Notes: a model not told the origin generated them from the letters alone. A stretch of DNA of 64,000 bases from Candidatus Babelota bacterium (GCA_030917815.1 JAUPTZ010000006.1:20403-84402), one strand, 5' to 3'. Shown: positions 2 to 24,645, counted from the stretch's first letter. Numbers and translations are program-made.

Positions 2-1633
2 GCGGCCGGCGGTACACCGCACGCAACCTGGGCCGAGCTTGAAGGAACATTGAGAGACCCTAAGCCGGTCGCACAGGCTCATTATGCAAAAGCAATTAAA
101 ATAAAAATGACACTCGGCTCAAAAAGCTTATTCCAGGAAGATATCGATCGACTCACTTCCGAATACGGCAATGAGCGCAAGCTCGCCGTTGCGTATGACC
201 CATCACTGGCAGACAAGCTTCCGGCCGCTAAAGATCTCGCCATCAAAGCGCCTAAACCGGATGATGGTAGCCGCCAAAAACGCCAGCTTAAAACGCTGGT
301 CACCAAACTCAAAGCCATAAATAAAATGCTCAGCGGTGGCACGCTTGGATTGGGCGGGGTAACCCATGATGAAGCCGATCAACAAACAAAGCTCTTCAAA
401 GGAACCTATACAAAGGCAAAAGATCTTGAAGCACAAATCGGAAAAATTACTAAAACAGTTGGTGAAAAACTTACCGGCAGTCTCTCCATTCCTGAACTTA
501 CTACCTCAATTAAATATGTAAGCCCGGCAAAAGCAGCAGAAAAATATATAGACGCCATTAAAAAAATCGATGCAAAACTCACCGGTCAAACCACTCTTAC
601 GCGCCTTAAAAAAGTAACGGAGAAACAACGAATCACGCTCATCACGCAACGGGATGCGTTGGTCGCCAAAGTGGAAAAGTTGGGCCCCGAAGCGGCCGCG
701 TTGCTACCACCAAAACCACGCGAAGCAAATATAAACAATGTGGCATCGCCAACAACCGACGCCACCCCAGAAGCCACAGAAGCTGGTAGCAGTGCCAAAA
801 AAGGCGATGGCACAGCCGGCAGCAGTGCTGGAAACAACAGCAATAATACGAGTAACGGCGCCAACAATAACACCAATAACAACAACAGTAGCGATGGCGG
901 GCATAACCCATCAAATGGAGCCACAACGAAGAGTACCGGCTCTCATAATGATGACGATGGCCGATCGACAACTCATCCCAACGGCAGTGCACCAACCACC
1001 AGTACCGGAGGCAGCAGCTCAGCAGCGGCAAACTCAGGCAATATCATTATTAAAGTTGGCGATAGCCATGGTAAATCTGACCGTGACTCCACAACCTCAC
1101 CACAGCAACAACCTGGCTTTTTTGCGCGCGCACTCGCGCCATCACCTATGATGGGAATGCCAATGGGTGGCGGTATGGGTATGGGCATGGCTATGGGTGG
1201 CGGTATGGGTATGGGCATGGGTGGTGGCATGGGGATGCAAGGTGGCATGGGTGGCTATTCTCAAGCACCGGCACCAACAATAAACGTAGTAAACAGCATT
1301 GGTGGCGCTGCAAGCGCCGCGGGAGCCGGTGGCACAGCCATTGCCGGTGGCGGTGGCGGCAGTGGCGCTGGGGCCGGACAAGGAGCTAACGAGAACACCG
1401 GCGCTACCGAGAGAGGCTCTAACGCGGTACCAAGCAAGAGCGATTTTGTCGATCTCGTGAAACCAACACAAGCGCTAAGCGGAATCACTATTCCAACCAT
1501 CCAAAGCAATAGATTTGATGAGCTCTTAACGTTCTCCGGCTGCATCGTTATAGATCCAACAGCAACTATACCGCCAGCCTCAAATGATATCACTAGCAGT
1601 TGGCAAGCGGCAACAACGGCCATCACCGCCTGA
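2..1633 (+). CDS. 3' part of a large low-complexity protein (5' end probably outside the window). It has a Lys/Ala-rich helical region, an Asn/Ser/Thr-rich tract and a Gly/Met repeat.
   Basis: Frame 2 has no stop from the window edge to the TGA at 1631-1633. The ORF track starts it at an internal TTG (50). No family recognised. It ends ...AATTAITA. Confidence 0.75.
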   Translation, partial: AAGGTPHATWAELEGTLRDPKPVAQAHYAKAIKIKMTLGSKSLFQEDIDRLTSEYGNERKLAVAYDPSLADKLPAAKDLAIKAPKPDDGSRQKRQLKTLVTKLKAINKMLSGGTLGLGGVTHDEADQQTKLFKGTYTKAKDLEAQIGKITKTVGEKLTGSLSIPELTTSIKYVSPAKAAEKYIDAIKKIDAKLTGQTTLTRLKKVTEKQRITLITQRDALVAKVEKLGPEAAALLPPKPREANINNVASPTTDATPEATEAGSSAKKGDGTAGSSAGNNSNNTSNGANNNTNNNNSSDGGHNPSNGATTKSTGSHNDDDGRSTTHPNGSAPTTSTGGSSSAAANSGNIIIKVGDSHGKSDRDSTTSPQQQPGFFARALAPSPMMGMPMGGGMGMGMAMGGGMGMGMGGGMGMQGGMGGYSQAPAPTINVVNSIGGAASAAGAGGTAIAGGGGGSGAGAGQGANENTGATERGSNAVPSKSDFVDLVKPTQALSGITIPTIQSNRFDELLTFSGCIVIDPTATIPPASNDITSSWQAATTAITA

Positions 1634-2313: not shown

Positions 2314-5300
2314 ATGAAAAAGCTTTATGCGATATCATTACCTGTCATCGTTCTGTGCTCCCTTTTCCTACCTTCGATCAATCGAGCCGGCGTACTTGGT
2401 ATGCTACGACCAATGGCTCTTGGCGGCACAAGCTCTGCTGAGCGAAACGCAAAAGAGGCCGGTAGCGATTTGGCAAAACTTAATCGTCGCGTCGTTGCAT
2501 TGGCTAAGACATTAAATGATGATGGCCTCTTAGCCGACGAAGAAATAAGAGGCAAGCTTGCCGGCATTAGAGATGCCGATGCTAAATATAAAAAACGCTC
2601 AGCGGCCGACCAGGGAAAAGATAAGTCTGGAAAAGTTGTGGACACAAAAGTTGATGCCGGTAGCACCTCATACTTTCTTGCTACCGCTCGGCGGCCAACA
2701 GAAATACAGAACGTCATTGATTTGCCAACGATACTGGACAAATATAAGAAACAAAGACAGGCGCTTGCAAAGCGTACCTGGTCGTTAAAATCAGGGAGAC
2801 TTGGCCGCCACTTCTTGGGGCGTGACGACAAGTTGGACGATATAGCGCAAGACATCGAAGATAAGGCGACAGACCTTCAAAAACACAACCTCCTCGATAT
2901 CACCTCGGAGATTACGAAAGACGATGATGCTGGGGTAAACATAAATGACATACGAACCGCGTGCACCAATCTTAAAAATCATCTCTCTGAAGTCAACAAG
3001 TATTACGGCAGCGTAATCGGCACGGTCTGCCAACTCAAAAGAAAGCTAGAAGTAGACTCGGATGATGATGATGCTGCTGACAACATACCAGAACCATCGG
3101 CTCCTCCTGCCGATGATAAAAATAGCGATCTTGCCAAAAAGAAAGCAAAAAAACAAAATGGATCGGCCGGACGGCGAACCAAGTCCTACTTAAAACAAAT
3201 GTACAAGGTCGTTAAAGAATTTGCTGCCGAGGAGAGCGAAAAAGATCGTGGAAAAAAAACCCGTCTCAACGATGCGATGCTTGCCACTGCATGCGCACAA
3301 TTTGATGGTTGGTATAAGAGCTTAAGTACACGATTTAGCGCCGAAAACAAAAGTAAAGCTAAAGACGACCTTAGCTTCATGCCATCGGACACCTCTGTAT
3401 CCTCACCGCTCGATCTTGCTATCGACAGCGACGATGCAGTCTTTCCGACAAGCGGCACACCACAAATGAAGGTTAAGGATATTCCAACCGCCTATGCACA
3501 ATTAAAACGGGACATTCACACACAGGACCAACTTATTAAGGCAATTGCAAATCAAGAGTATCTCTTCGATGACCTTGAACATGGCTGGGCAAACAATCTA
3601 CGATCCCACATCGCCGCCTACCTCGACAGAGCAATTCTTGGTGGCTTTTCCATCATAGCGGCTCGTATTGCAATGCGTAAAATGATGGGCGGCTCTAAAA
3701 CGCTCGTTTCAGGCACCGTTGGCGTCGGCACCAAAACCGTTGACGTCAGAGGCATCGCAGAATGCACCAAAGATCTCCTTAAGGCGTTAGGTTTTAGTGA
3801 TGGAGAGAGTGGCGCCAATACCAACGGCTCGTCGGAAGTCATACCGGATTGCAGCACTTTTTTCGCTACGGAGATGCCGAACCTGAATAATGGAAAAAAC
3901 ATTCCTAATGCTATCAATCGATGCATATTCTACCGAGGCAACAATGAAGCTGACGACAGCAGCCCCAATGCATCAACCTCCGATGATTCATGGGCAACAC
4001 CAGACTCTACTAGAATTCAAGCGGCTATCGTTACCGCACGCAATAACCTCTCGCAAGACAAGCGCGCAAAACTTACCGATATATGTATAAAAATACGAAC
4101 CTCATTAAGCACGCTCTACGGACGTTATTTCAAGCTCATTAACGAAAATCAAATTATTGGCCTTCATCTCGTCGATGGAAAAATACACGCGGCCGACACC
4201 CTTGCGCGCAAGGAACTTGGCCTCACTAAGATAGCGCTCTACAACCTGCTTGCGCTCATGGCACTGGCTCGTGGACACAATTCGTATGGCAAGGTACTGC
4301 ACGACAAAGTAACCGGTGTCCCAAGCACACTCCAGGGGCTTCTCCGCGCTATTGATCCTGAAGCCGGTTTTAATAAATATCAATCGACCTTTGTTGACGC
4401 CAATGGCGGTGCCAAAATGCATGCCGCAAACAAAACGGCCGCACAACGACTTGAGTATGTTACCTACACCGTAGGCGCAGCCGAAAACACGGCACACATT
4501 AAAGTTGAGAATTATAAGGTGTTAAAAAATAATAATACCGATGTTGACACGCTGCTCACGGCAGCGCAGGCGGCCGTCGCCGCATTGCTCAATGCGGTTA
4601 TCCTCTCCCTGGCCGACTCTAAACATGTATTGCCAGACCTTAAAGAAGCTTGCAGCGCTAAATCCTTAGACTTCTCAAAAATAGCGCCGACCCAGCCGCA
4701 AGTTGCCGTCATCTTTCACGGTGATACGACAACCGGAGATATTTTCACACAAAATTTAGAGATCTTGAAAACATCTCGGGACAGAGGCGAAATCGTGGCC
4801 GCAACCAGTGCGCTTATTGGAGCGCTCCAAACACGTATGAGGAAAAGAATCGGTTCTGGCTCAAAAGCACAACGATGTGAGCTCAAGCCGGCACTGAAAG
4901 GCCCTAGTGGTGATATCGACAATGTGACCGTTAAGAAGGCTGACGGCTCAACTATGCATTTCATCGTAACCAACATTTGGCGCCCAAGCACCGATGAGAC
5001 ATGCCTCAAGTATTGCGTCCGCTTTGCCGATGGCTCATGGTGTCTTGCCGCTGCTCCGTCAGCAAGACCGGATAGCGACAAAAATATTGATATCATCTTG
5101 CAAGACGAATCGTTAAATGACAAAGAAGCCTCGTACAATATGGTCATCTACGCAGACAGACCCGGCACCTACCCAATGATCAATCCATTCAAGATCACAA
5201 AAGGCACAATCACTACGGTCACGGTGAAAGATGATAAGGGCCCGGTGGAAGGCATCACCAGCATCGGTATGGCTAATGATGGCACCTTCAAAAATTACTG

Positions 5301-7548
5301 TGTCTGCCTCAACTCCGGTAAATTTAGCACAGCAACCTGGACCTCTGGCACTCTTTACGAAGAAGACATTATCATTAAGCTGCAAGGAGATCCTCTTGAT
5401 GATGCGCCGTATGGGTATCCTATTTTCTGTTACGGTGGCAGCGATAGCGAAAATCTTGATGAAAGTGCATGCCCGATTGAAACATTCGCCGGCACCGCAA
5501 CCGATAGCGACCAACAACGAACAATCAATCCCAAAGCAATCTTCACCTTTAAGCAATCGGTAAAGGCTGATCAAGCAACACCATGCACAACCCATGTCGG
5601 CTACTGGTACAAGCCAACATCCAGTGCTCAGCCGGAACAACGGTGCAGCCCAGTAACTACCATCGATGGCGGCGATGCGACAGCCGCCCTTACAAAGCAG
5701 TCAACGATTACTTTCCAGATCGGAAAAAAATCAGGTATATCTAATAATGATTTGAACAATGAGTCAAAATACTGCAGCGTTCTGGATGGCCCCGCTGATG
5801 AAGGCACACCACCGGAAGACGAATACCTAGTCATCACCTCTTCTACCGACGCAGCACCAGTAATAAATCCGATGATGCTAGCGGGTAGCCCGGTGCGAGT
5901 GATTGACGCGGCAAGAAGAACGTCTAACCCATTATTAGGAGCATTGCCTACTCCTCGCCCTTCACGATCCGCAAATAAAGTAGTGCTTGTGGCAAAAGTC
6001 AGAAATACCAGCACGATCCCAGCGACTACTACCGTGATCCAACCCAAAAATGTTAAAGAACTTTGGAGACTAGTAAGTCCCCAAGAGGGCCTTGAGAGAT
6101 ATGTCCTCGTATATCGCAACAATGGCACCTTACAGGCCGTTCCCGCAACACTTCAACCCCTAAAACAAGATGCGCCTAAAACAGCAATCATCACTCGAGG
6201 CAAAACAATATTACAAGATCAAGCCGCTTTTAAACTGTACGAAAATACCGACTTTAAGGCAGAAGATGGTGATACCGATCCGGAATTCGTCAATCAGCAA
6301 CGCGCGAGAGCGGCTACAAGCGATGATGCCAGTGTTACCGCTTCGATGCCTGAAAGTTCAGACTCTACGAGCGTCGGCAGTAATAATGGCGATGACGACG
6401 TGGTAGCTGATGATCCGGCAGTAGCAGAAACCGATGCCTTTACCCCGCCACCGTCGACCCCAGAAACCAACGCTGCTGCAAAAGTACTGCAAAAATACGC
6501 TAAGGGAGGCTTAGCAAGGAAATCATTTAAGCCATTTAAGCAGACAAAGCAAGTCCCAGGGCAACAAGGGACAAGTTATCAGGTTGATTCTGATACATGG
6601 AAAAAAGCCTACAACACTGGGCCAGAAGGAATTATCCAGTGGATCAATGATGGCATTACCGATATTTATAGCATAGGCGCCGACTACTATGTCACGTACC
6701 AGGGCAAGGTATGGGCTACGACAGTTAATGATACTACTCAAGGTAATATCTGGTTCGATCTAACAGGGGCGCCAGCAAGCACCGAGCCATATAAGTGGGA
6801 ACGAACTAACAGGGTAAAACCCGGCTTTAGGTATCGCTTTACCAGCGGCACAGCGCCGGTTCTGGCGACTGATGATGCACCAGCTCCTATCCCAGACGAT
6901 ACAGTTGCTCCTGCTGTGGTGGTGGCAGATAGAAATGTGCCAGGATTTCCTGATCGACAACTACATGAGGATGGCTACTATTATTACAATATTGGAGAGG
7001 GTTTCTACGTGATCCAAAACGTCTCCGATAGTAAGCCTGTCAACAATGCGAGCGATATCTATCAGGAAAATTCAAATGGATGGGTTGGATATGTGATAGT
7101 TAATGGCCTAATGTACGCAGGCACATTTGCGAATGACAATCAAACAATTAACATCGATCTAGGCCATGAAAGGCGCCCCGTAACAACGTGGATTAACGAT
7201 GAGCAAAACCCTCCTAAAGCCGGTTTTGAGCACGTTTTCCCTATAGGCTCACACGATATATTTCCTGGTAGAAAGCTCACCGCTTCTGGGGGCCACATGT
7301 GGTTTCATTATGTTGTTAACCAGAATCCGGAAGAATGGTACTTCCTAATTGACAGCAAAAAGCGTCTCCCTATCAATACTGCAACCAAGATTATGCACGA
7401 CAATGGAGACACTTATTACGCCCTCATAGATAAAAAGCTTTACCACAGTACCTCCTTTGATGCACAGGCTAAAATGATTACCATAGACCTTGACGCCGAA
7501 GATACAACCGATCAGCAGACACTCAGGAAAATCTTTCCCAGTAGTTAA
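2314..7548 (+). CDS. Giant secreted protein (1744 aa), family unknown. The N-terminal region is helical and charged. The C-terminus carries aromatic-rich modules of ~100 aa separated by Pro-rich linkers.
   Basis: ATG with GGAG 8 nt upstream. Signal-peptide-like N-terminus MKKLYAISLPVIVLCSLFLPSINRAG. Uninterrupted 5.2-kb ORF. Confidence 0.9.
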   Translation: MKKLYAISLPVIVLCSLFLPSINRAGVLGMLRPMALGGTSSAERNAKEAGSDLAKLNRRVVALAKTLNDDGLLADEEIRGKLAGIRDADAKYKKRSAADQGKDKSGKVVDTKVDAGSTSYFLATARRPTEIQNVIDLPTILDKYKKQRQALAKRTWSLKSGRLGRHFLGRDDKLDDIAQDIEDKATDLQKHNLLDITSEITKDDDAGVNINDIRTACTNLKNHLSEVNKYYGSVIGTVCQLKRKLEVDSDDDDAADNIPEPSAPPADDKNSDLAKKKAKKQNGSAGRRTKSYLKQMYKVVKEFAAEESEKDRGKKTRLNDAMLATACAQFDGWYKSLSTRFSAENKSKAKDDLSFMPSDTSVSSPLDLAIDSDDAVFPTSGTPQMKVKDIPTAYAQLKRDIHTQDQLIKAIANQEYLFDDLEHGWANNLRSHIAAYLDRAILGGFSIIAARIAMRKMMGGSKTLVSGTVGVGTKTVDVRGIAECTKDLLKALGFSDGESGANTNGSSEVIPDCSTFFATEMPNLNNGKNIPNAINRCIFYRGNNEADDSSPNASTSDDSWATPDSTRIQAAIVTARNNLSQDKRAKLTDICIKIRTSLSTLYGRYFKLINENQIIGLHLVDGKIHAADTLARKELGLTKIALYNLLALMALARGHNSYGKVLHDKVTGVPSTLQGLLRAIDPEAGFNKYQSTFVDANGGAKMHAANKTAAQRLEYVTYTVGAAENTAHIKVENYKVLKNNNTDVDTLLTAAQAAVAALLNAVILSLADSKHVLPDLKEACSAKSLDFSKIAPTQPQVAVIFHGDTTTGDIFTQNLEILKTSRDRGEIVAATSALIGALQTRMRKRIGSGSKAQRCELKPALKGPSGDIDNVTVKKADGSTMHFIVTNIWRPSTDETCLKYCVRFADGSWCLAAAPSARPDSDKNIDIILQDESLNDKEASYNMVIYADRPGTYPMINPFKITKGTITTVTVKDDKGPVEGITSIGMANDGTFKNYCVCLNSGKFSTATWTSGTLYEEDIIIKLQGDPLDDAPYGYPIFCYGGSDSENLDESACPIETFAGTATDSDQQRTINPKAIFTFKQSVKADQATPCTTHVGYWYKPTSSAQPEQRCSPVTTIDGGDATAALTKQSTITFQIGKKSGISNNDLNNESKYCSVLDGPADEGTPPEDEYLVITSSTDAAPVINPMMLAGSPVRVIDAARRTSNPLLGALPTPRPSRSANKVVLVAKVRNTSTIPATTTVIQPKNVKELWRLVSPQEGLERYVLVYRNNGTLQAVPATLQPLKQDAPKTAIITRGKTILQDQAAFKLYENTDFKAEDGDTDPEFVNQQRARAATSDDASVTASMPESSDSTSVGSNNGDDDVVADDPAVAETDAFTPPPSTPETNAAAKVLQKYAKGGLARKSFKPFKQTKQVPGQQGTSYQVDSDTWKKAYNTGPEGIIQWINDGITDIYSIGADYYVTYQGKVWATTVNDTTQGNIWFDLTGAPASTEPYKWERTNRVKPGFRYRFTSGTAPVLATDDAPAPIPDDTVAPAVVVADRNVPGFPDRQLHEDGYYYYNIGEGFYVIQNVSDSKPVNNASDIYQENSNGWVGYVIVNGLMYAGTFANDNQTINIDLGHERRPVTTWINDEQNPPKAGFEHVFPIGSHDIFPGRKLTASGGHMWFHYVVNQNPEEWYFLIDSKKRLPINTATKIMHDNGDTYYALIDKKLYHSTSFDAQAKMITIDLDAEDTTDQQTLRKIFPSS

Positions 7549-9316
7549 CGACGGCGTCGCTCACGCCCCACTCCACGATGCACCTGAACCTCTACCCCAC
7601 CCAGTTCCGGCAGAGGATACCCCGTTGCCGCCTGTCGTAGTCGACACTCCCGTAATCAACACACCGCCGGCACCACCGCGTACATTAAATGCGGACGGTT
7701 TTTTTGAGTACCCAATCCTGCCGGCCTACGATCTTACTATCGATACACTCACCATCAGAGACCCAAAAACCGTACCTTATGCACCGGTCAATGACGTAAG
7801 CGCTCTCTATCAAAAGGCTGGGAACATATTCTTCATGGTACGCGATGGAAAAGTGTATAAGATGGAAACGCCAACTAATTTCCCTAGCGTGCCATACCTC
7901 AATTCTAGTCCAAGTGCTTATCACGGACCAATAAGTTCGCTAGGCACCCTCTCCGCCTGGCGTCGCGATAATGGCGGCACGGCAGTCAAGATTTTTCCGG
8001 CCGATGAAGACCTCTACCCGATCCCCAAGATGGCTCACTGCTATTACCGGGTAACCGATCACCACCGTATACCACAAAAAGCCTGGTGTATTTATTACAC
8101 AACCGATCCAAGCTTTATTTTTGTGGGTCTCAAGGCCGATGGACCGCTGTATAAACTCCAACCTGCTGCAGCGATAGAACGAGCCGGAAAAACAATATAT
8201 TTCCTTAGTATTTCGAGCGCTAGGACACCAACAGTCAATGGCATCACTCCAGCCCAATGGGTACAAGCAAATGGTGGAAAAGATGGGTATCACTGCGTGT
8301 ATCAGGAACAGCTTCGCGACGATTTCTTTGTATATCAAACCGCAAAAGGCCCTCTTTCCATTGTTAAACAAACTATGGCTCCCGATATTGCACCTACGAA
8401 TGAAAAAATAACCGACGACACTGCCATTTTATATTGGGCCGGTCCTGATCAAGTTACCCTTCTCCCTCGCTATTTTGTTAAACACCGCGGTACAATTTTC
8501 GTCGGTGGTCAAGCGACCGATTTTGATACCACACACCGTATAATACTTCGCGGAAATGAAACACTAACCGCGGCCGCGCTCGATGAAGCACTGGTGCGGG
8601 CAACCGCTTATCAAATATATCCGAAACAACCAGATGATACGGCCACGCCGCACATCACCACTTCCGATCCAGATTTGGGGAAATTCACCTTCAGCAATGG
8701 GCATGCACTCAGGATTTTACGCGCAGACGACGGCCGCAAACCGATTAGCGAACCATGGGCCATCTATCTCCTCAATGATGATGCCGGCGTAGCCGATAGC
8801 AATCGCTTTTTGGTAGCCTTAAAAGAAGATGGGCCTGCCTACCTAACAGACTCACAGACAACGCGAGGTGATCCTATGAGTTTTGGCATACTGGTAAGCA
8901 CGACAGAAGCGGTACCAAACAATGATGCCTGGTGGATCAATACATCCAGGGCAGCTACATACTCGCCCCGAAACTACTCGCGCCTGTACCACCGTCGTAC
9001 CGAAGAGCTCTGGGCCAGCGCACATCTACCGCCAACCGCGGCGAGCATAAATCCCATGACAGCCCACTTTACCACGGTGGAAATCCCTTCATGGGGAACC
9101 GATGTGCCATTTAAAGTATGGAGAAAAAAGCAAGATATTCCACTTCTGTCAGCAGCTAATAGTCTTCCACCATTCCTGGCGAGCAAAGATCGCTCATACG
9201 TTGGAGCAACGGCGCTCTCTGCACGCGACACCACTTTGCAGCTGAAGATCCTGCCTGGCGCACCGTGGCTGGCCCCCGACCTGTCCAACTTTGAGCAAAT
9301 CTGGCCTCTTCTTTAG
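7490..9316 (+). CDS. Probable continuation of the 2314-7548 protein in the +1 frame (608 codons), made of the same repeat modules
   Basis: The frame has no ATG and no signal peptide. The only start is a TTG inside the preceding gene. The Pro-rich linker and module pattern continue seamlessly across the boundary. Confidence 0.7.
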   Translation: MTPKIQPISRHSGKSFPVVNDGVAHAPLHDAPEPLPHPVPAEDTPLPPVVVDTPVINTPPAPPRTLNADGFFEYPILPAYDLTIDTLTIRDPKTVPYAPVNDVSALYQKAGNIFFMVRDGKVYKMETPTNFPSVPYLNSSPSAYHGPISSLGTLSAWRRDNGGTAVKIFPADEDLYPIPKMAHCYYRVTDHHRIPQKAWCIYYTTDPSFIFVGLKADGPLYKLQPAAAIERAGKTIYFLSISSARTPTVNGITPAQWVQANGGKDGYHCVYQEQLRDDFFVYQTAKGPLSIVKQTMAPDIAPTNEKITDDTAILYWAGPDQVTLLPRYFVKHRGTIFVGGQATDFDTTHRIILRGNETLTAAALDEALVRATAYQIYPKQPDDTATPHITTSDPDLGKFTFSNGHALRILRADDGRKPISEPWAIYLLNDDAGVADSNRFLVALKEDGPAYLTDSQTTRGDPMSFGILVSTTEAVPNNDAWWINTSRAATYSPRNYSRLYHRRTEELWASAHLPPTAASINPMTAHFTTVEIPSWGTDVPFKVWRKKQDIPLLSAANSLPPFLASKDRSYVGATALSARDTTLQLKILPGAPWLAPDLSNFEQIWPLL

Positions 9317-9386
9317 CTAAATCATTGTATCTACCCATCGTGACCGGTACACTACCAGAAAACAGACATTTCTCGTGGGTTACCGC

Positions 9387-11210
9387 ATGAAAAAAAACCT
9401 TATTCTCGTCGGCATAATAGTTCTGCAATCACCGCTCTTCGCCGCGGAAGCGGTCAGCAATTTCAGCGCTGGTCGAATAGTCAGCAGCTTGAAAAAAAAA
9501 ATACAGAAAACGATGGGCGATGATGAAGATCCGGTCGCCACGTTTACCGATACCTATCTAAGCACCTATGGGCTTGATCCCGCAACCGACCTTGCCGCAG
9601 AGCTGCAAAGCCTTAATAAAGGAAACATCACTCGCGACAATGCCTACAAAGCACGTATCGACACAGGAAGCAGTCAACTGATACCTACTTTCAAATGGTT
9701 CAGGCTGCCCACTGAACGGTATCTCTATCCGGACATTCCAAGCCAAGTAAAATCACTCAAACAAACAGCGTTCCTCTTAAACGGAGATCGGAACACCGAA
9801 GGCACCTTGGCATGGTTGTATGCGCAGAATCCATCAACTAAAACTCCTGACCGGACTACCGACATAACGGCGCTCAAAACGACCGTAGAACAAGATCGTG
9901 ACGCAATCGTTACTTACTTCGCCACCACGCTGAAGGTTCAGCCTAGCGACGCGGTAGCAACGTATGCGGCCAACCTCACCCAAGCTCTTACCGCCTGTAC
10001 CACCAGCAACCCGTACTACACCGACATACTAAAACCGCTTTCGGAACAGGTGCTCAGTGGTACGTACAATCCACTCATCGAGCCGCTCGGTAGTATGTGC
10101 GAACACTATGGCGCATTCTTTAAGCTCAAGCGTACCGATCCATCTTCGGTACTCAAAAAGCTCACTGCTGCTAATGGCGGCATGCGCACCCAGCTTAAAA
10201 ATGCACTCGATATCGTTAACAATAAATTAGCACAAAGTGCCCTCCTGGGGAGTGAAGTGTATGATATATCGGAAACGTTCCTCAGCTCAGGGGCTACCAT
10301 CCTGCAAGCACGGCTCATCGCCCTTGATATCGCCGGACAATGTAGCAGCGCTTATGCAATCCTGCTTCAAATCCTCACCGCATGCAAAGAACGTATGCCG
10401 GCTATCGCCACCGGTGACGGCAGCCAAGAACAGCTCATAGCCGATCGTTTACACTTGATGACTATAAGTGATCCAAGCGTATTAACTCTCGCTGGCATGT
10501 GTCAGAGCCTACGGGAGATAACCATTAACAAAACAACCTCTACCCGATTTTATAGCGATACGTATGCGTTTAACGTAAAGACAACAACCCGTAATTCAGA
10601 CGCAACGATCGTTGAAGGTACCGTGCAAAAATTTATTGCCGACACGCAAGACTCACAAGGGCTCTTGGTCGCACTCATGCGGGAAATTCCGGAAATTACC
10701 GACACCGATGAGATCAAAAATTTAGCCCCCAAAATAGGCGTTTTTTATCTTCTGTATACCGCATTTAATAATCAAGATGACTTTAACTATAGCGACACAC
10801 TCACCAAGCAATTTCCTGGCACTAAGCTTGCATCATCAACCGCCGATTCAAGTGATACATCGGTAGTTGAGGTGGTTGATTCCATCAATGAGACCAATAC
10901 CGTAATCAAAGAACCGAAAAGCCAAACATTTTCTTGCAATGTGACTGAGCATACCGACAAAAAAGTGGCGATCACCGCAGCCGAAGATACCGATTTAGCA
11001 ACCGTAACCGCTATCGCGTGTAGTAAAACTGACTGGACTGATAGCGAAGAAGCATTCAATTTAAGAATAACTATTAACGGCACCGAAAAGTATTCCGCTG
11101 CGACTTCGGACGATGCTAAAACCTGCACCCTCAACCTTGATAAAGCCACCGATAGTCCCCCTGCCGATGTCTCAAGCTATACCGTCATCTATACGAAAGA
11201 AGCCGCATGA
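9387..11210 (+). CDS. Secreted hypothetical protein (607 aa)
   Basis: Signal peptide MKKNLILVGIIVLQSPLFAAEA. The stop overlaps the next start (ATGA at 11207-11210). The C-terminus is ...YTKEAA. Confidence 0.85.
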   Translation: MKKNLILVGIIVLQSPLFAAEAVSNFSAGRIVSSLKKKIQKTMGDDEDPVATFTDTYLSTYGLDPATDLAAELQSLNKGNITRDNAYKARIDTGSSQLIPTFKWFRLPTERYLYPDIPSQVKSLKQTAFLLNGDRNTEGTLAWLYAQNPSTKTPDRTTDITALKTTVEQDRDAIVTYFATTLKVQPSDAVATYAANLTQALTACTTSNPYYTDILKPLSEQVLSGTYNPLIEPLGSMCEHYGAFFKLKRTDPSSVLKKLTAANGGMRTQLKNALDIVNNKLAQSALLGSEVYDISETFLSSGATILQARLIALDIAGQCSSAYAILLQILTACKERMPAIATGDGSQEQLIADRLHLMTISDPSVLTLAGMCQSLREITINKTTSTRFYSDTYAFNVKTTTRNSDATIVEGTVQKFIADTQDSQGLLVALMREIPEITDTDEIKNLAPKIGVFYLLYTAFNNQDDFNYSDTLTKQFPGTKLASSTADSSDTSVVEVVDSINETNTVIKEPKSQTFSCNVTEHTDKKVAITAAEDTDLATVTAIACSKTDWTDSEEAFNLRITINGTEKYSAATSDDAKTCTLNLDKATDSPPADVSSYTVIYTKEAA

Positions 11211-12922
11211 ACACACACATAATCCTCCTGCTCGCCTCAATCTTCTGGTTACCTAGCACGTTCGCTATGATGCCCTATCAACAGCCCACCGGCGTTTTTG
11301 GCGCGCTTGCCGCACGCCATGACCTGGAGAATCGCAAAGATGCACGCCAAGGACAATCGGAAGGCATCGCCAACATTGAGAAAGAAGTACACCGCTTTAC
11401 CCTGTGGCTTGGCGAAGAAAAGATATTAGATTTATACAAAGATACCTGTGCACAATATAACGCAAATCTCGCGATCGAAAGCAACTACGTAAAGTATATT
11501 CAAACAGCCTCAACCAGTAGCCTTGTACGAGCCCCTGCCGGTTATCGCCTTGCCGAATATCGCCCTATTTTCCCCAAGCTCAGCGATATCATGGATAAAT
11601 ACGAAAAAATACAAAGCATTCTCGCAACGCACAAGGAACTCGGTGCCAGCACGCTCATGTACAAATTAACGTCGTGCAAGCGAATCGTAGAATTAGTCGA
11701 TTTGATCACCGACTATGAAGGAAAGTACATCGTACCGCGTGATCCGCGTGATATACCTGCCGGGCCTGACATAAAAGCACGCCTCGAGAAACAAAAAGCG
11801 CTCGTTGACAATGCCCAAGCAAAAATAAGCACCATACGCGATGGCCTATCGCTCTATCTCTCAGTAATGGGTATTGCGCAAGATGGCCTCGCAGACGACC
11901 TCCATGATCTCCGTGATATGGCCAAAGATGTTGAAGATATTTTGGATTCAGAAGAGGTCACCGGAAAAAAACTAGATGGCGGTAGATCTTTTGGAGAACA
12001 AATTGCCAACCTCATTTCTGACCGCTATGCAACCGGTCCCGACCCAAAATTAAACCCCTTTTTAATGCCTATAGCCGGCCCATCTGATAGATTCATTGGC
12101 GTTCCCTTGAGCGATCTAAAACAAGAGATAATCGTCTATCGCTCATCGCTCCTCACCGCAGCCGAAAAAATCCGAAAAAAAGCGGTCCCTAAGGAAAGTA
12201 TTCTTGATAAAACAACACCAACCAAACCAAATGAGTATTTTAATGAAGGAATGATTCCACCGGCCATGGATCGCCTAGAAAATGGCACCATGGTGCACCG
12301 TGCCATGGCACCGGGCTATCTTGGTTACTGGTTACAACGCATTGTAGACCGATTACACGAAATCACCCTCCTTGGTACCGATATCATTGATGGGCGCCTT
12401 CAGCTCTTGAATATTCAAAAAAAACTTAATGATGGCTGCCTCACTACATGCACCACACTCTTCAATACACTTACCAACGAAGCGATTATCAAAGATTGCA
12501 CCGCTACGAACATAAACATTGCCCATATTACCGCAGCACTCCAAGAAAATGAGGAGGGCATTGCCGACGTACAAAAAGCAACCGGTCAGACATGCCAAAG
12601 CATACTGGGCAGCGCTACAAAAACACTAACGACGCTTCAAAAAGATGTTCCGCTTCTTTTTTCGGTACGGATCGACAAAACGCCGGATGCGCGTCCGGTT
12701 ATTGAATTGTATAAACTACGCCGCACCCTTCTCATACTCTCACTACTCAATGCACTGGCAAATAAGAAGCCATTTAGCCCTTCAACCTACACCAGTGATG
12801 TGTTTGGCGCAGTGCCGGCATCGCTCTTCCCAGCCATTGAAGGCTTATCAGAGGCACCGGCCGGTAAAGCTCCAATAAGCGATGATACCCACGTAGGTGA
12901 GAGCGATGCTGAAGCGGTTTAA
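11207..12922 (+). CDS. Secreted hypothetical protein (571 aa)
   Basis: ATGA overlap with the upstream gene. Signal peptide MNTHIILLLASIFWLPSTFA. The C-terminus is ...DAEAV. Confidence 0.85.
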   Translation: MNTHIILLLASIFWLPSTFAMMPYQQPTGVFGALAARHDLENRKDARQGQSEGIANIEKEVHRFTLWLGEEKILDLYKDTCAQYNANLAIESNYVKYIQTASTSSLVRAPAGYRLAEYRPIFPKLSDIMDKYEKIQSILATHKELGASTLMYKLTSCKRIVELVDLITDYEGKYIVPRDPRDIPAGPDIKARLEKQKALVDNAQAKISTIRDGLSLYLSVMGIAQDGLADDLHDLRDMAKDVEDILDSEEVTGKKLDGGRSFGEQIANLISDRYATGPDPKLNPFLMPIAGPSDRFIGVPLSDLKQEIIVYRSSLLTAAEKIRKKAVPKESILDKTTPTKPNEYFNEGMIPPAMDRLENGTMVHRAMAPGYLGYWLQRIVDRLHEITLLGTDIIDGRLQLLNIQKKLNDGCLTTCTTLFNTLTNEAIIKDCTATNINIAHITAALQENEEGIADVQKATGQTCQSILGSATKTLTTLQKDVPLLFSVRIDKTPDARPVIELYKLRRTLLILSLLNALANKKPFSPSTYTSDVFGAVPASLFPAIEGLSEAPAGKAPISDDTHVGESDAEAV

Positions 12923-14339
12923 CTATCTTTTTCTCTTCTTCATACTCTTTCTGAATCCATGCAATACCCTTGCTGCCACAACCGCTCCACAGCACGGCAA
13001 TCTCTTTAGCCATTTTTGGGGTATTGCCGAAACTATTAATAAAATAGAAACGCGGGCGTTTCGTACCATTCCCTTAGCAACCATTGTCGAAGAAGGGCTC
13101 CGTGCAATGGTCAACAAAGTCGATGCACACTCGGCATTCTTTAGCCCTCGCAGCTATCAAACAACGGTTGAACTTGCCTCAGGCCATTTCCCCGGGATTG
13201 GTATCAGCGTTATTAGCAAAGAGACCGATGCCGACTCGCTGCTGGTGGTTGATACTATGCGTGGTGGACCGGCCGATCTGGGCGGCATAAAAAGTGGCGA
13301 TGCCATCATAAAAATTGATGGTCAGCGTCTCCGCGGGCTTACCTCAGATGAGGTCATTAACAAACTCAAGGGACCGATTGATACCATGGTGCGCGTCACC
13401 GTAATGCGAGAAAAAAAACCGCTCAAATTCAAACTCATCCGCAAGCTCATTCATGACCGAAGCGTGTATGCCTATCAGTTGCCACAACAGAATATTACCT
13501 ATATTGCTATCAAATCATTCTCCGACAAAACACCGGAGCACGTTGAATCTTTTTTGCGCACGGCGGAGAAGAAAAAAAGTAATGGCATCATCTTGGATAT
13601 GCGTAAAAATCCGGGTGGTGTCGTCGAAGCGGCCGTAAAAACAGCCGGCCTCTTTCTTCCCGATCAATCGGTAGTAGTGCGCACTAAAAATAATAAAAAA
13701 GAAACGGTTGGTACCTACACAACTAATGGTACACCGCTCTATACAGGCCAGGTACCGCTGTTTGTACTGATCGACAATTTTACCGCGTCGGCCGCCGAGA
13801 TTGTCACCGGCTGCTTACAACATCACGCCCGATTATTAAACCTCCCTATTTTTGTTATCGGTATGCCATCATATGGCAAAGGATCGGTTCAGGAAGTAAT
13901 TCCTCTCCATAACGGCTGCGCAATAAAGCTAACCGTTCTCCTCTATTACCTCCCTAACGAACAATGCATTCAGGCGCTGGGTATTACACCAGATATTATC
14001 GCCAAGCCAAAAGCGGTACCAGCTCAAGAACTTAAATGGGTAGAAGAATTGTATGGTAAAGAAACGGCGCTCACCAACCACATCACACGGGAAGAGGTTG
14101 AGGGCAAACCGGCACCGATAGCAACACCCCCGATCGAAGTATCTGACCGGCCACCGCTTGACGTAGAAGTAGAATTTATAAAAAAATTAACCAACGATTA
14201 CGTCATCCATGCCGGACTAACTATGGCTAACGTATGGACTCTTGGGCACCGTACATCACCTATGCCTACTCATGACGCGGCTTTAGCCTTTTTGAAGAAG
14301 ACGGTCGTTACCGAGCCATTTGAAGTAGAGAAGCTATAG
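12906..14339 (+). CDS. ctp: S41 family C-terminal processing (tail-specific) protease with a PDZ domain
   Basis: PDZ-like GGPADLGGIKSGDAIIKIDGQRL. S41 motifs DMRKNPGGVVEAA, LIDNFTASAAEIV (Ser) and SYGKGSVQ (Lys). Signal peptide MLKRFNYLFLFFILFLNPCNTLAA. It overlaps the upstream gene by 17 nt. GTG at 12897 is an alternative start. Confidence 0.9.
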   Translation: MLKRFNYLFLFFILFLNPCNTLAATTAPQHGNLFSHFWGIAETINKIETRAFRTIPLATIVEEGLRAMVNKVDAHSAFFSPRSYQTTVELASGHFPGIGISVISKETDADSLLVVDTMRGGPADLGGIKSGDAIIKIDGQRLRGLTSDEVINKLKGPIDTMVRVTVMREKKPLKFKLIRKLIHDRSVYAYQLPQQNITYIAIKSFSDKTPEHVESFLRTAEKKKSNGIILDMRKNPGGVVEAAVKTAGLFLPDQSVVVRTKNNKKETVGTYTTNGTPLYTGQVPLFVLIDNFTASAAEIVTGCLQHHARLLNLPIFVIGMPSYGKGSVQEVIPLHNGCAIKLTVLLYYLPNEQCIQALGITPDIIAKPKAVPAQELKWVEELYGKETALTNHITREEVEGKPAPIATPPIEVSDRPPLDVEVEFIKKLTNDYVIHAGLTMANVWTLGHRTSPMPTHDAALAFLKKTVVTEPFEVEKL

Positions 14340-14385: not shown

Positions 14386-15186
14386 ATGTATAAAAAATTA
14401 GGCCTACTCGTTCTTGTCACTGCTGCCGTTGCTATTGGATACTTCAAGCTTCATCACGCATCGGCGCCCAACGCACCAATCGAAGAGGTACGTGACACCC
14501 TGGTCGTTGGTACCAATGTTGGCTACGCACCCTTTATCTTCACCGACGAAACCGGCGCCATTGTCGGTTTCGATGCCGACGTAGCGGCCGCACTTGCCAA
14601 AAAACTTCACAAAAAGTTAGTTATCAAAGACATGGCATTTGATGCACTGCTCTTAGCGCTCATGCACGGATCGATCGATGTGATTATTGGCGGAATTTCT
14701 CTGACTAAAACCAGACAAAAAACCGGGCTCATGACCAGTTATTACGGTGACAAGGTTGACCGGGTTGCCTGTTTCTACCGCGATGATCGACCATTGACCG
14801 GCCTCACGCTCACCGAGATGGGTGAACGTGGACTCCATGTATGCACACAAGCCGGCTCTATTTTTGAAGAAATTTTGGCTCAACATCCCGGCATCATCAT
14901 AAAAACATTGCCCGATATCAGTGACATCTGCATGGAAGTAGCCCATAACGGATCGGACATGGGCATGCTTGATGTCGACTCGGTTAATTCGATCGTCAAA
15001 ACACAAAAAACATTACGCATGCATGAGGTAGGGGTACCGGCCGACCAAATAATAGATGGCTTTGGCATTGGCATTACGCCAACCAAACCGGCATTACGCG
15101 AAGCAATTGTACAGGCAATCGATACGCTCAAAGCAGATGGCACCATTGCCAACCTAGCCACCCACTGGTTTACCAAAGGACACTAA
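14386..15186 (+). CDS. Polar amino-acid ABC transporter, periplasmic substrate-binding protein (SBP family 3)
   Basis: LVVGTNVGYAPFIF..GFDADVAAALAKKL...IIGGISLT is the typical GlnH/ArtJ-type pattern. AAGGA lies 8 nt upstream of the ATG. Confidence 0.85.
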   Translation: MYKKLGLLVLVTAAVAIGYFKLHHASAPNAPIEEVRDTLVVGTNVGYAPFIFTDETGAIVGFDADVAAALAKKLHKKLVIKDMAFDALLLALMHGSIDVIIGGISLTKTRQKTGLMTSYYGDKVDRVACFYRDDRPLTGLTLTEMGERGLHVCTQAGSIFEEILAQHPGIIIKTLPDISDICMEVAHNGSDMGMLDVDSVNSIVKTQKTLRMHEVGVPADQIIDGFGIGITPTKPALREAIVQAIDTLKADGTIANLATHWFTKGH

Positions 15187-15187
15187 G

Positions 15188-15835
15188 ATGAACCCTATGC
15201 TTTCATTATTTATCTCCGGCACCCTTACTACCCTCTGGGTTGCCTTTGTTGGTTTATGCATCGGCATGACGCTCGGATGCATTGCCGGTATTATGAGCTC
15301 ACGACGTATCACTTCACCGTTCATCGCCCGTGCGATACAGGCCTATGTCTTTGTTATGCAAGGCACACCGCTTTACGTCCAGCTACTTCTCATGTGTTTC
15401 GCCTTACCACAGATCCTTAATGCCCAAATTTCACCGCTTACGGCCGGTATCATTACGATCGGCATGAACTCGGTGGCCTATGTTGCCCAAATCGTGCGTG
15501 GCGGCATCAACAGCATCCCGGCCGGGCAATGGGAAGCGGCCTATGTCCTGGGCTACTCACAACGGGCAACGCTCTGGTATATCATTCTTCCCCAAATGGT
15601 ACGCACCGTGCTCCCTTCACTCATTAACGAAACAATTTCACTGGTCAAAGAAACCAGCATTATGGGCGCCGTAGGCATTGTAGAACTAACCAAGGTAGCT
15701 AAAGACACGGTAAGCCGTACGCTTGAACCACAATGGTTTCTCATTGCTGCCGGCATATATTTAGCGATCACCGGATTACTCGGGATTGCGGCACACGCAC
15801 TTGAACGAAAGTTTGACTATGATAAAGGGTTGTAA
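15188..15835 (+). CDS. Polar amino-acid ABC transporter permease
   Basis: Multi-TM protein with the EAA-type loop GQWEAAYVLGYSQRATLWYIILPQ. It starts 2 nt after the SBP gene stop. Confidence 0.9.
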   Translation: MNPMLSLFISGTLTTLWVAFVGLCIGMTLGCIAGIMSSRRITSPFIARAIQAYVFVMQGTPLYVQLLLMCFALPQILNAQISPLTAGIITIGMNSVAYVAQIVRGGINSIPAGQWEAAYVLGYSQRATLWYIILPQMVRTVLPSLINETISLVKETSIMGAVGIVELTKVAKDTVSRTLEPQWFLIAAGIYLAITGLLGIAAHALERKFDYDKGL

Positions 15836-16538
15836 TGTATCGCTCTCGTATACCCACGACGGCACGCCACGCATCGTCTTAAACAACGTCTCTTTTGAGA
15901 TTCCTAAAGGCCGAATAACCGCTTTTGTGGGCCGCAGTGGTGCCGGAAAAACCTCAATCCTCCGGTGCTGTGCCCACCTCACCACAAGTTACCGCGGCAC
16001 GATTACACTACAAGATCGCCCGGTCGCTTCGTACGACAATCAAGAACGGGTGCATACGGTCGGGTTTGTATTCCAACAATTCAATCTCTTTCCGCATATG
16101 ACCATTATGGAGAATTGCACCGCCGCATTACGCTATGAAGGACGACTTTCTGAGGCGGCCATTGTTGATCGCGCAACCGAATTGCTCACCCTCGTTGGCA
16201 TGCGGGAATATGCTTCTCGCCACCCTCACCAACTCTCCGGTGGCCAGCAGCAACGAGTAGCGATTGCGCGGGCCTTAATGCTCAAGCCATCGGTATTGTT
16301 ATTTGATGAACCAACCTCGGCACTTGACCAGGAAAGCACCACGATGCTGGCAACGGTACTCAAAAATTTGCTGCAAAACGGCATCACCGTAGCCTATGCA
16401 AGTCATGACATGCAGTTTATTGCGGCAACCCGTGACCGTGTCTATTTGATGGAGCACGGGACGATTATAGAAGCGTATAATAGCGCGACGCAGGAAATGA
16501 GTGACGCGCCGCGTATTGCGACTTTTTTACAACAATAG
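15819..16538 (+). CDS. Polar amino-acid ABC transporter ATP-binding protein
   Basis: Walker [10 protein letters not shown], signature [15 protein letters not shown] and Walker [12 protein letters not shown]. The ATG overlaps the permease stop. The ORF-track TTG start at 15786 is less likely. Confidence 0.9.
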
Positions 16539-16645: not shown

Positions 16646-16695
16646 CATTACCGGCATAGCGGATGCGGCACGGAGCTTTCATCGAAGGCTCCATT

Positions 16696-16986
16696 ATGAA
16701 AACAATTCCGGCCGTCTACATTATGGCGAGCGCTCGAGATGGCGCTATCCATGTGGGTGTTACCGCACATCTTATTGACCGCATAACGGCGCAACAAGGC
16801 AATGGATATATCCTCGTCTATGTTGAATTTCATCGACGCGTTGGCGACGCCCTTGCGCGCGAAAAACAGCTCAAAGGCGGCTCTCGAGACAAAAAAATAG
16901 CGCTCATTGAGCGCTTAAATCCTGCATGGAACGATTTGTATGATACGATGCTTTTTGCATTTCGCTTCTACGGAGCAGAGGAATAA
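16696..16986 (+). CDS. Small stand-alone GIY-YIG nuclease family protein (96 aa)
   Basis: MKTIPAVYIMASARDGAIHVGVTAHLIDRI...REKQLKGGSRDKKIALIERLNPAWNDLY is the GIY-YIG / UPF0213-like layout. GAAGG lies 8 nt upstream of the ATG. Confidence 0.85.
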   Translation: MKTIPAVYIMASARDGAIHVGVTAHLIDRITAQQGNGYILVYVEFHRRVGDALAREKQLKGGSRDKKIALIERLNPAWNDLYDTMLFAFRFYGAEE

Positions 16987-24496: not shown

Positions 24497-24645
24497 ACTA
24501 CTCTCCTACCTAACTATACGTATCTCACTACCTTGTCCAGCGCCATACAATGCCCCACTATTGCGTAGCAGACAATTCATTTTTAGCAGCGCCATTTCGG
24601 TAATGTCAATTTTTTGCCATTTCCTTGCAGAAAAAAAGATTTTTC

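Follow-up and report, generated by a model that had tools for sequence, protein, structure and literature searches.

We analysed a 64,000-nucleotide (nt) window from a Candidatus Babelota bacterium (GCA_030917815.1, JAUPTZ010000006.1:20403-84402; G000:C8:20403-84402 in our numbering), a member of the Dependentiae/Babeliales whose 1.2-Mb genome (G000) lies in 17 contigs and is 98% complete. The subject is a plus-strand gene cluster, A, B, B′, D and E, that runs into ctp, the gene for a PDZ-containing S41 C-terminal processing protease (Ctp). An initial annotation had described an operon of five tightly packed open reading frames (ORFs), from B to ctp, encoding giant paralogous secreted proteins and, at its end, the protease that would mature them. 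The five-ORF plus-strand layout was borne out, with a 59-nt frame overlap of B and B′, a 70-nt gap, an ATGA overlap of D and E and a 17-nt overlap of E and ctp. The features, in window coordinates, are as follows.

2–1633, plus strand: A, 3′ part; the full protein has 708 amino acids (aa), and its start lies 494 nt outside the window, on the upstream side
1634–2313, no strand: A–B spacer of 680 bp, with GC-rich short repeats and a GIY-YIG remnant frame
2314–7548, plus strand: B in the zero frame, 1,744 aa, with a signal peptide, a helical N-domain and a long beta-rich C-terminal region
6574–7867, plus strand: array of an aromatic module of about 75 aa, four clear copies (iterated hidden Markov model (HMM) search, domain E values 2e-17 to 2e-28)
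7537–7548, plus strand: candidate site CCC_AGT_AGT for a programmed +1 frameshift, with the zero-frame stop TAA next to it
7490–9316, plus strand: B′, the +1-frame continuation of B, 608 codons, with no signal peptide and no ATG and with a Pro-rich linker at its start
9387–11210, plus strand: D, 607 aa from the ATG at 9387 (GTG at 9375), predicted to be exported, probable remote paralog of E that is extended by about 100 aa at its C terminus
11207–12922, plus strand: E, 571 aa, predicted to be exported and all-alpha, with a disordered tail (residues 548–571) ending in Ala-Val
12906–14339, plus strand: ctp, from the ATG at 12906 (GTG at 12897), PDZ-containing S41 protease with a signal peptide
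14386–16538, plus strand: polar amino-acid ABC importer (substrate-binding protein 14386–15186, permease 15188–15835, ATPase 15786–16538)

The absence of recognisable domains from the non-protease products was confirmed, as Pfam and NCBIfam were empty for A, B, B′, D and E; in the cluster and the genes downstream of it, these databases recognise Ctp and the ABC transporter only. Hydrophobic Sec-type N termini, also part of the earlier description, are visible in B, D and E as well as in Ctp. The word giant fits B but not D, E or A, which have only 571–708 aa. Promoter and terminator scans of the locus were at chance level, so that co-transcription is read from ORF spacing; B probably has a putative promoter of its own inside the A–B spacer.

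Ctp and its genomic setting

Ctp carries PF03572 (E value 6.9e-42, residues 199–367) and PF00595 (E value 4e-11, residues 95–169) and scores 264.4 bits against TIGR00225, for which the cut-off is 218.6. Among solved structures, bacterial CtpA proteins come closest to it (9jr1, E value 4e-61; 7rpq, E value 3e-53). In the alignment to 9jr1, the segments 'TASAAEIV' and 'YGKGSVQ' of Ctp pair with 'SASASEIV' and 'FGKGSVQ', which we take to be the motifs of the Ser/Lys catalytic dyad. The gene is the sole S41 gene in the genome, and its ortholog is single-copy in 27 of 35 well-assembled Babeliales genomes.

Outside the clade of the present genome, we compared 20 ctp loci (about 20 kb each) from 15 other families, and A–E and the ABC transporter were absent from the vicinity of ctp in these loci. 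There, the recurrent neighbours, which are oriented divergently from ctp, comprise cmk, recJ, lysS, a small ftsB-like gene and rapZ. Within the clade, genomes G000–G004 and metagenome loci L073 and L100 have the arrangement cmk<recJ<lysS, then A>B>D>E>ctp>ABC. Because A–E lie between lysS and ctp, the cluster occupies what was the divergent region upstream of ctp. The ABC importer adjoins ctp in this clade only, and in one member locus, L074, it lies upstream on the opposite strand. A tblastn search of the whole of G000 (E < 1e-3) found neither rapZ nor the ftsB-like gene; their loss may have accompanied the origin of the cluster, or they may have become too divergent to be recognised. The expectation that ctp would travel with the family held within the clade, where the whole cluster plus ctp is syntenic, but found no counterpart in the 15 other families. 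A ctp conserved beside the ABC transporter without the giant genes had been named as the observation that would speak for accidental adjacency; ctp without A–E is indeed what the 20 loci contain, but the transporter is missing from them too.

The Ctp proteins of the clade are monophyletic (support 100/100) on a long stem (1.29). Faster evolution of Ctp as a sign of a new function was considered and rejected: pairwise identity to other Babeliales is 41.8% versus 45.6%, and recJ follows the same pattern. A second-copy protease acquired together with the cluster and dedicated to it would be confined to family-carrying genomes, and ctp is not. The proposal that about 3,500 codons of secreted protein have a maturation enzyme of their own finds little support beside a single S41 gene that is the ortholog of an order-wide ctp and that occurs in other loci without A–E. 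We read Ctp as a vertically inherited housekeeping protease that was neither co-acquired with the cluster nor dedicated to it. This status, like the insertion history and the paralogy of B, D and E described below, is drawn from sequence comparison.

The B, D and E proteins and the origin of the cluster

The initial annotation had suggested a paralog family from a loose motif common to the N-terminal regions of the cluster proteins. BLASTP among A, B, D and E found no similarity. We therefore turned to profiles built from ortholog alignments of the five genus genomes and the metagenome loci, with signal peptides removed and 5–10 sequences in each. Profile-profile comparison (hhalign) linked the N terminus of B to E (83.8%, E value 7.9e-6, 324 columns) and D to E (89.7%, E value 1.8e-6, 387 columns), and reversed-sequence controls for the same profiles reached 17–21 bits with E values of at least 0.2. 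The alignments of the three proteins are collinear and have in common the motifs PAGYRL..R...P.LS..MDKY.KI, which contains the motif noted earlier, and G..II.AR. A did not join the family: hhalign gave 0.1–0.2% against B and D and at best 10% (E value 0.003) against E, near the control scores, and by this measure A is unrelated to B, D and E. The family first proposed thus holds for B, D and E by profile-profile comparison, but A is not linked to it.

Several results weigh against this paralogy. The direct comparison of B with D is weak (about 2%, E value 0.025), which leaves E as the bridge between the two. The link is seen in profile-profile scores of alignments with few sequences, and HMM-to-sequence searches barely detect it; the best non-E matches of the E-family HMM are D proteins, but at E values of only 0.004–1. 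On balance, B, D and E are probably remote paralogs with a helical N-terminal domain of about 450–500 aa in common, which in B would cover about residues 31–460 (nt 2404–3693). They would derive from one ancestral gene and differ in what follows at the C-terminal end: E has no addition, D is longer by about 100 aa, and in B the beta-rich modules amount to more than 1,200 aa.

The family is rare. The E profile, searched against 1.84 billion representative proteins, retrieved 8 clusters, all of 527–571 aa except for one 64-aa fragment, and a homologous-protein search with E returned E alone. Metagenome scans with the E family first found none, and a broader alignment found four loci. An hhalign comparison of the E profile with 512 single ORFs of G000 recovered not even D or B and is therefore useless for finding more paralogs; by the same single-ORF comparison, which missed even D and B, no E relatives were found among the ctp neighbours of other families.

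We modelled E with AlphaFold. An alignment of 4 sequences gave a poor model (predicted local distance difference test (pLDDT) 53), and the model from 8 sequences (pLDDT 76, predicted template modelling (TM) score 0.70) was used for the fold search. This model consists of helices throughout, and its tail (residues 548–571) is disordered. Foldseek returned no match for it: the best PDB hit had an E value of 1.2, with TM scores of at most 0.22 on the query, and the best BFVD hit an E value of 0.32. The E-family profile against PDB sequences gave a best E value of 0.034, at the level of noise, and Pfam (E value ≤ 0.1) detected neither a tetratricopeptide repeat (TPR) nor any other repeat. As modelled, the fold of E matches no solved structure and no viral one.

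Rates of evolution were taken from a pairwise comparison of G001 with G004. The neighbouring housekeeping genes lysS and recJ have 95% and 96% protein identity with ratios of non-synonymous to synonymous substitution rates (dN/dS) of 0.05 and 0.03, respectively. The corresponding values are 74% and 0.20 for A, 69% and 0.31 for the N-terminal 204 codons of D, 60% and 0.41 for B, and 40% and 0.37 for B′. The cluster thus changes about 4–10 times faster at non-synonymous sites than its housekeeping neighbours. Selection on its proteins is weakly purifying or in part diversifying, in keeping with exposure to the host in an intracellular parasite. G001 (L069, CAYSBJ010000002.1) is the closest complete relative, and its record is titled 'uncultured Pseudomonadota bacterium'; this label is probably wrong, because genus, gene order and 72–89% identical housekeeping proteins are common to it and to the Babeliales genome studied here.

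Together, these comparisons favour, with a probability that we put at roughly 0.6, a clade-specific, fast-evolving cluster of Sec-exported envelope or secreted proteins that entered the genome of one Babeliales lineage between lysS and the housekeeping ctp. The cluster would have landed upstream of ctp, and Ctp would be co-expressed with it because of that position.

Gene A, at the head of the cluster, encodes a protein that is predicted to be exported and has Asn/Ser/Thr-rich and Gly-Met low-complexity regions; a Gly-Met tract (MGMGMGGG..., window 1141–1260) follows about 130 Asn/Ser/Thr-rich residues. Its orthologs hold the same position in G001, G002, G004, L073 and L100, and their conserved parts are the C-terminal ~100 residues and a near-terminal W..A motif. 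The spacer that separates A from B contains several short GC-rich hairpin-like repeat copies (ATCGCCACCCG...CGCGGTCGCGA) and a 32-codon remnant with 53% identity to the GIY-YIG ORF at 16663–16986 (tblastn, C8:22182-22277). Small GIY-YIG ORFs of about 105–121 aa, 40–42% identical to that at 16663–16986, occur at differing cluster sites in different genomes, for example between D and E on the opposite strand in G002 (contig C31, L068) and in L073 (7770–8135). Their varying sites suggest a mobile, homing-endonuclease-like gene that has landed here repeatedly.

The B/B′ junction

B ends ...ATC TTT CCC AGT AGT TAA, and the +1 frame reads CCA_GTA_GTT (Pro-Val-Val) at the same place. The open stretch of the +1 frame begins 17 codons before CCC and continues for 592 codons beyond it, and B and B′ overlap by 62 nt from stop to stop, or by 59 nt from the first TTG. 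The aromatic module occurs three times at the end of B (6574–6762, 6946–7161 and 7261–7491) and once at the start of B′ (7670–7867), so that the two frames encode one repeat array. Three further copies of the module lie outside the window, in a 444-codon ORF on contig C2 (66586–67917; domain E values 9e-16 to 2e-20).

Nine bases, CCCAGTAGT, with CCC in the zero frame, are invariant in the overlap of B and the +1 ORF in G000, G001, G004 and L074, four independent assemblies that represent three lineages and span the deepest split of the clade. The zero-frame stop follows the 9-mer directly (G000 and L074) or four codons later (G001 and G004), and the flanks are unrelated, to the point that MAFFT could not align the four junctions. 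The overlapping +1 ORFs after B have 209 and 343 aa in G001 and G004. In L074, a 1,653-aa ORF of the B family (hmmsearch E value 1.4e-7; hhalign 96%) precedes a +1 frame that stays open for 428 codons. Because L074 branches outside all other clade members on the Ctp tree, the arrangement is old. The 9-mer is about as frequent as a reversed control in these genomes and is not enriched; among its 26 other occurrences, none has the geometry of B and its +1 ORF.

The decoding context is compatible with slippage. A single tRNA-Pro gene is present in G000, and its anticodon is UGG; among the Pro codons of the genome, CCC is rarest (11.5%) and CCA commonest (33.6%), and a slip from CCC to CCA would take tRNA-Pro(UGG) from wobble to cognate pairing. 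Weak pairing of the UGG isoacceptor with CCC, and frameshifting at that codon, have been reported (PMC4519876). In the long ORFs of G000, CCC-AGT pairs (7 versus 18 expected) and CCC-AGC pairs (7 versus 21 expected) are about three-fold under-represented, and CCC followed by other A-starting codons is near expectation; the shortage is compatible with avoidance of a shift-prone pair. The presence of trmD and efp in G000 argues against a general loss of frame maintenance. Last, B′ differs between G001 and G004 (39.5% identity) with a dN/dS of 0.37, a rough value because dS is near saturation (1.41), and this ratio indicates that B′ is under purifying selection.

We consider it likely, from sequence evidence, that the junction is a programmed +1 frameshift site that yields two forms of B. 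Most ribosomes would stop at the TAA at 7546 and release the 1,744-aa form. A fraction would slip by +1 at CCC_AGU_AGU, with tRNA-Pro(UGG) re-pairing from CCC to its cognate CCA while AGU waits in the A site, and would add 592 codons of C-terminal modules to give a form of about 2,340 aa. The predicted short form ends ...Pro-Ser-Ser and the long form ...Trp-Pro-Leu-Leu. Two observations count against recoding: AGT is not rare in G000 (18% of Ser codons), and B lacks a +1 continuation in three lineages (G002, G003/L073 and L100). The latter would also fit a decaying frameshift mutation, that is a pseudogene, or an assembly error, as would the change of frame by one base only and the short C and T runs beside the junction. 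We hold decay or error to be unlikely, though, given the same 9-mer and +1 geometry in independent assemblies across the deepest split, +1 ORFs that stay open for 205–592 codons past the motif, the constrained divergence of B′ between G001 and G004, and the module that B′ of G000 has in common with the end of B.

The candidate site resembles utilised +1 sites in several respects. These include CCC_UGA in Listeria phage tsh and ACA_CCC in PSA cps, GCG_AGU_U and CUU_AGU_U in yeast Ty3 and EST3, and CUU_UGA in E. coli prfB, and the Listeria phage shift adds a C-terminal extension to structural proteins of the capsid and tail (PMC5009743). Here, too, a P-site CCC is followed by a slow-to-fill codon, the slip lands on a better-matched Pro codon, and the result would be a C-terminally extended protein at a set ratio. 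It differs in that the A site holds a tandem sense AGU rather than a stop, and the zero-frame stop comes 2–6 codons later; no stimulatory Shine–Dalgarno sequence or pseudoknot was identified at B/B′, and the site lies in a chromosomal gene of an uncultured intracellular bacterium, with a product of about 2,300 aa.

E, ctp and related systems

E lies directly upstream of ctp in nine of nine informative loci (G000, G001, G003, L072, L073, L074, L075, L100 and L103). The spacing runs from an overlap of up to 58 nt, the true ctp start being uncertain in some loci, to a gap of 20 nt, and three loci have a 4-nt overlap. In the rearranged L074, with the ABC importer upstream on the other strand and two B-family genes downstream of ctp on the opposite strand, D>E>ctp is intact; Pfam and NCBIfam gave nothing meaningful for the neighbouring ORFs of that locus. 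In 6 of 7 clusters (at 50% identity) E terminates in Ala or Val, and in the remaining one in Ser, compared with a genome-wide figure of 20% for Ala plus Val at the last position, and the tail is unalignable past a conserved LFP motif. Elsewhere in the cluster, A mostly ends in small residues, and B and D have mixed C termini of no consistent type. C-terminal processing proteases are said to prefer non-polar and/or unconstrained C termini (bioRxiv 10.1101/2020.03.31.019315), a substrate rule that the tail of E fits.

The invariant adjacency and the flexible tail ending in Ala or Val, the kind of end that protease PDZ domains bind, make E a possible client of Ctp, as a substrate that is trimmed or as a PDZ ligand that is bound. 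We put this forward tentatively, at somewhat less than even odds. Gene order is sticky across the Babeliales, where recJ-lysS-ftsB-rapZ next to ctp persists with no functional link, so that adjacency within one clade is weak functional evidence; the Ala/Val ending, moreover, comes from 7 related lineages, and the C termini of B and D offer no parallel. These points leave nearly as much room for an accident of position, in which the cluster inserted into a permissive divergent intergenic region and ctp is reached by read-through, with no functional link. The ancestral locus had a divergent promoter region precisely there, and the identity of Ctp to other Babeliales Ctp proteins is only slightly below the usual, as is that of recJ. 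On the other hand, the D>E>ctp unit survived the rearrangement of L074, 4-nt E/ctp overlaps recur, and E tails end in Ala or Val above the genome background.

The wider claim, that Ctp is a dedicated protease trimming C-terminal extensions of all the cluster proteins (A, B, D and E), appears improbable to us. The co-directional tight array with its overlaps at D/E and E/ctp, the synteny of the cluster and ctp in all clade members and the small terminal residues of most A and E proteins would suit it. It is at odds with a sole S41 gene orthologous to the ctp of cluster-free lineages, with B-family genes on the strand opposite ctp in L074, with the opposite-strand GIY-YIG gene that splits D from E in G002 and L073, with C termini of B and D that are not conserved in type, and with an A protein that is unrelated to the family and encoded 680 bp from B. 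Of the suggested maturation of the cluster proteins by Ctp, what is left is the E–ctp adjacency, invariant in the clade; B, on the opposite strand in one lineage, and D, separated from E in two, drop out of it. A combined scheme, in which the frameshift sets the isoform ratio of B, Ctp trims E and the short B, whose small-residue end is of a type acceptable to Ctp enzymes, and frameshift efficiency decides which forms are matured or degraded, is the most speculative of these proposals and, we think, very unlikely.

E might instead be a partner or adaptor that activates or targets Ctp in the manner of LbcA or NlpI, rather than a substrate. It is all-helical, exported, about 550 aa long and invariably translationally coupled to ctp, and such coupling favours a fixed stoichiometry. 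We know of no report of a Ctp adaptor gene that is translationally coupled to ctp. The closest solved relatives of the present Ctp include the LbcA-dependent P. aeruginosa CtpA (7rpq), for which dependence on the adaptor is documented (PMC8764530, PMC11021448), and as in P. aeruginosa CtpA–LbcA and E. coli Prc–NlpI (same sources), a bona fide PDZ and S41 enzyme is made alongside a helical exported protein, here E. E differs from those adaptors, however, in having no TPR or other Pfam repeat match, no lipobox cysteine in its signal peptide and no solved structural match, although the PDB would include LbcA and NlpI entries. The cluster also has no peptidoglycan hydrolase, the usual CtpA/Prc substrate. 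Other Babeliales keep ctp without E, which implies that the enzyme does not need E in general, and the E paralogs B and D look like cargo. We regard an adaptor role as rather doubtful.

A precedent for E as a client may be the removal of a short C-terminal extension by a single Ctp, as in photosystem II D1 and in P13 of Borrelia burgdorferi and its paralogs; the D1 protease (1fc6) is among the PDB matches of this Ctp. In these cases, likewise, one Ctp acts on one or a few exported or membrane proteins, once on a paralog family. A–E, by contrast, have no sequence relation to those substrates, and cleavage here is hypothetical. As for the cluster as a whole, the Pmp proteins of Chlamydia and the Sca proteins of Rickettsia are lineage-specific, fast-evolving exported paralog families of obligate intracellular bacteria. 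They resemble it in having signal peptides, a shared domain with variable extensions, a dN/dS above that of housekeeping genes and a distribution confined to one clade. The cluster differs in that it has no autotransporter beta-barrel or known domain, and its shared domain is all-alpha with no known counterpart.

A PLA2_B (cPLA2-like) lipase gene, present in the window at 24625–26442, lies within about 10 kb of D-E-ctp in two more lineages (L074:1104-2927 and L100:20596-21656). The wider neighbourhood may represent a block of exported genes for host interaction that has been conserved.

The Dependentiae, obligate parasites of protists, are widespread, and to our knowledge hardly any of their exported proteins has an established role. 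In reduced genomes, as this locus cautions, tight operon linkage can come from insertion beside a housekeeping gene, and the result for Ctp still leaves one concrete candidate client, E. We know of few utilised +1 frameshifts in bacterial chromosomal genes, prfB being the classic one; if true, the clade-conserved combination of a P-site CCC read by a lone tRNA-Pro(UGG) and an A-site AGU, lengthening a giant exported protein, would add a new natural case. The cluster defines an orphan family, of 8 clusters among 1.84 billion proteins, with a confidently modelled helical fold that has no match, and its fast non-synonymous evolution is the signature expected of proteins at the host interface.

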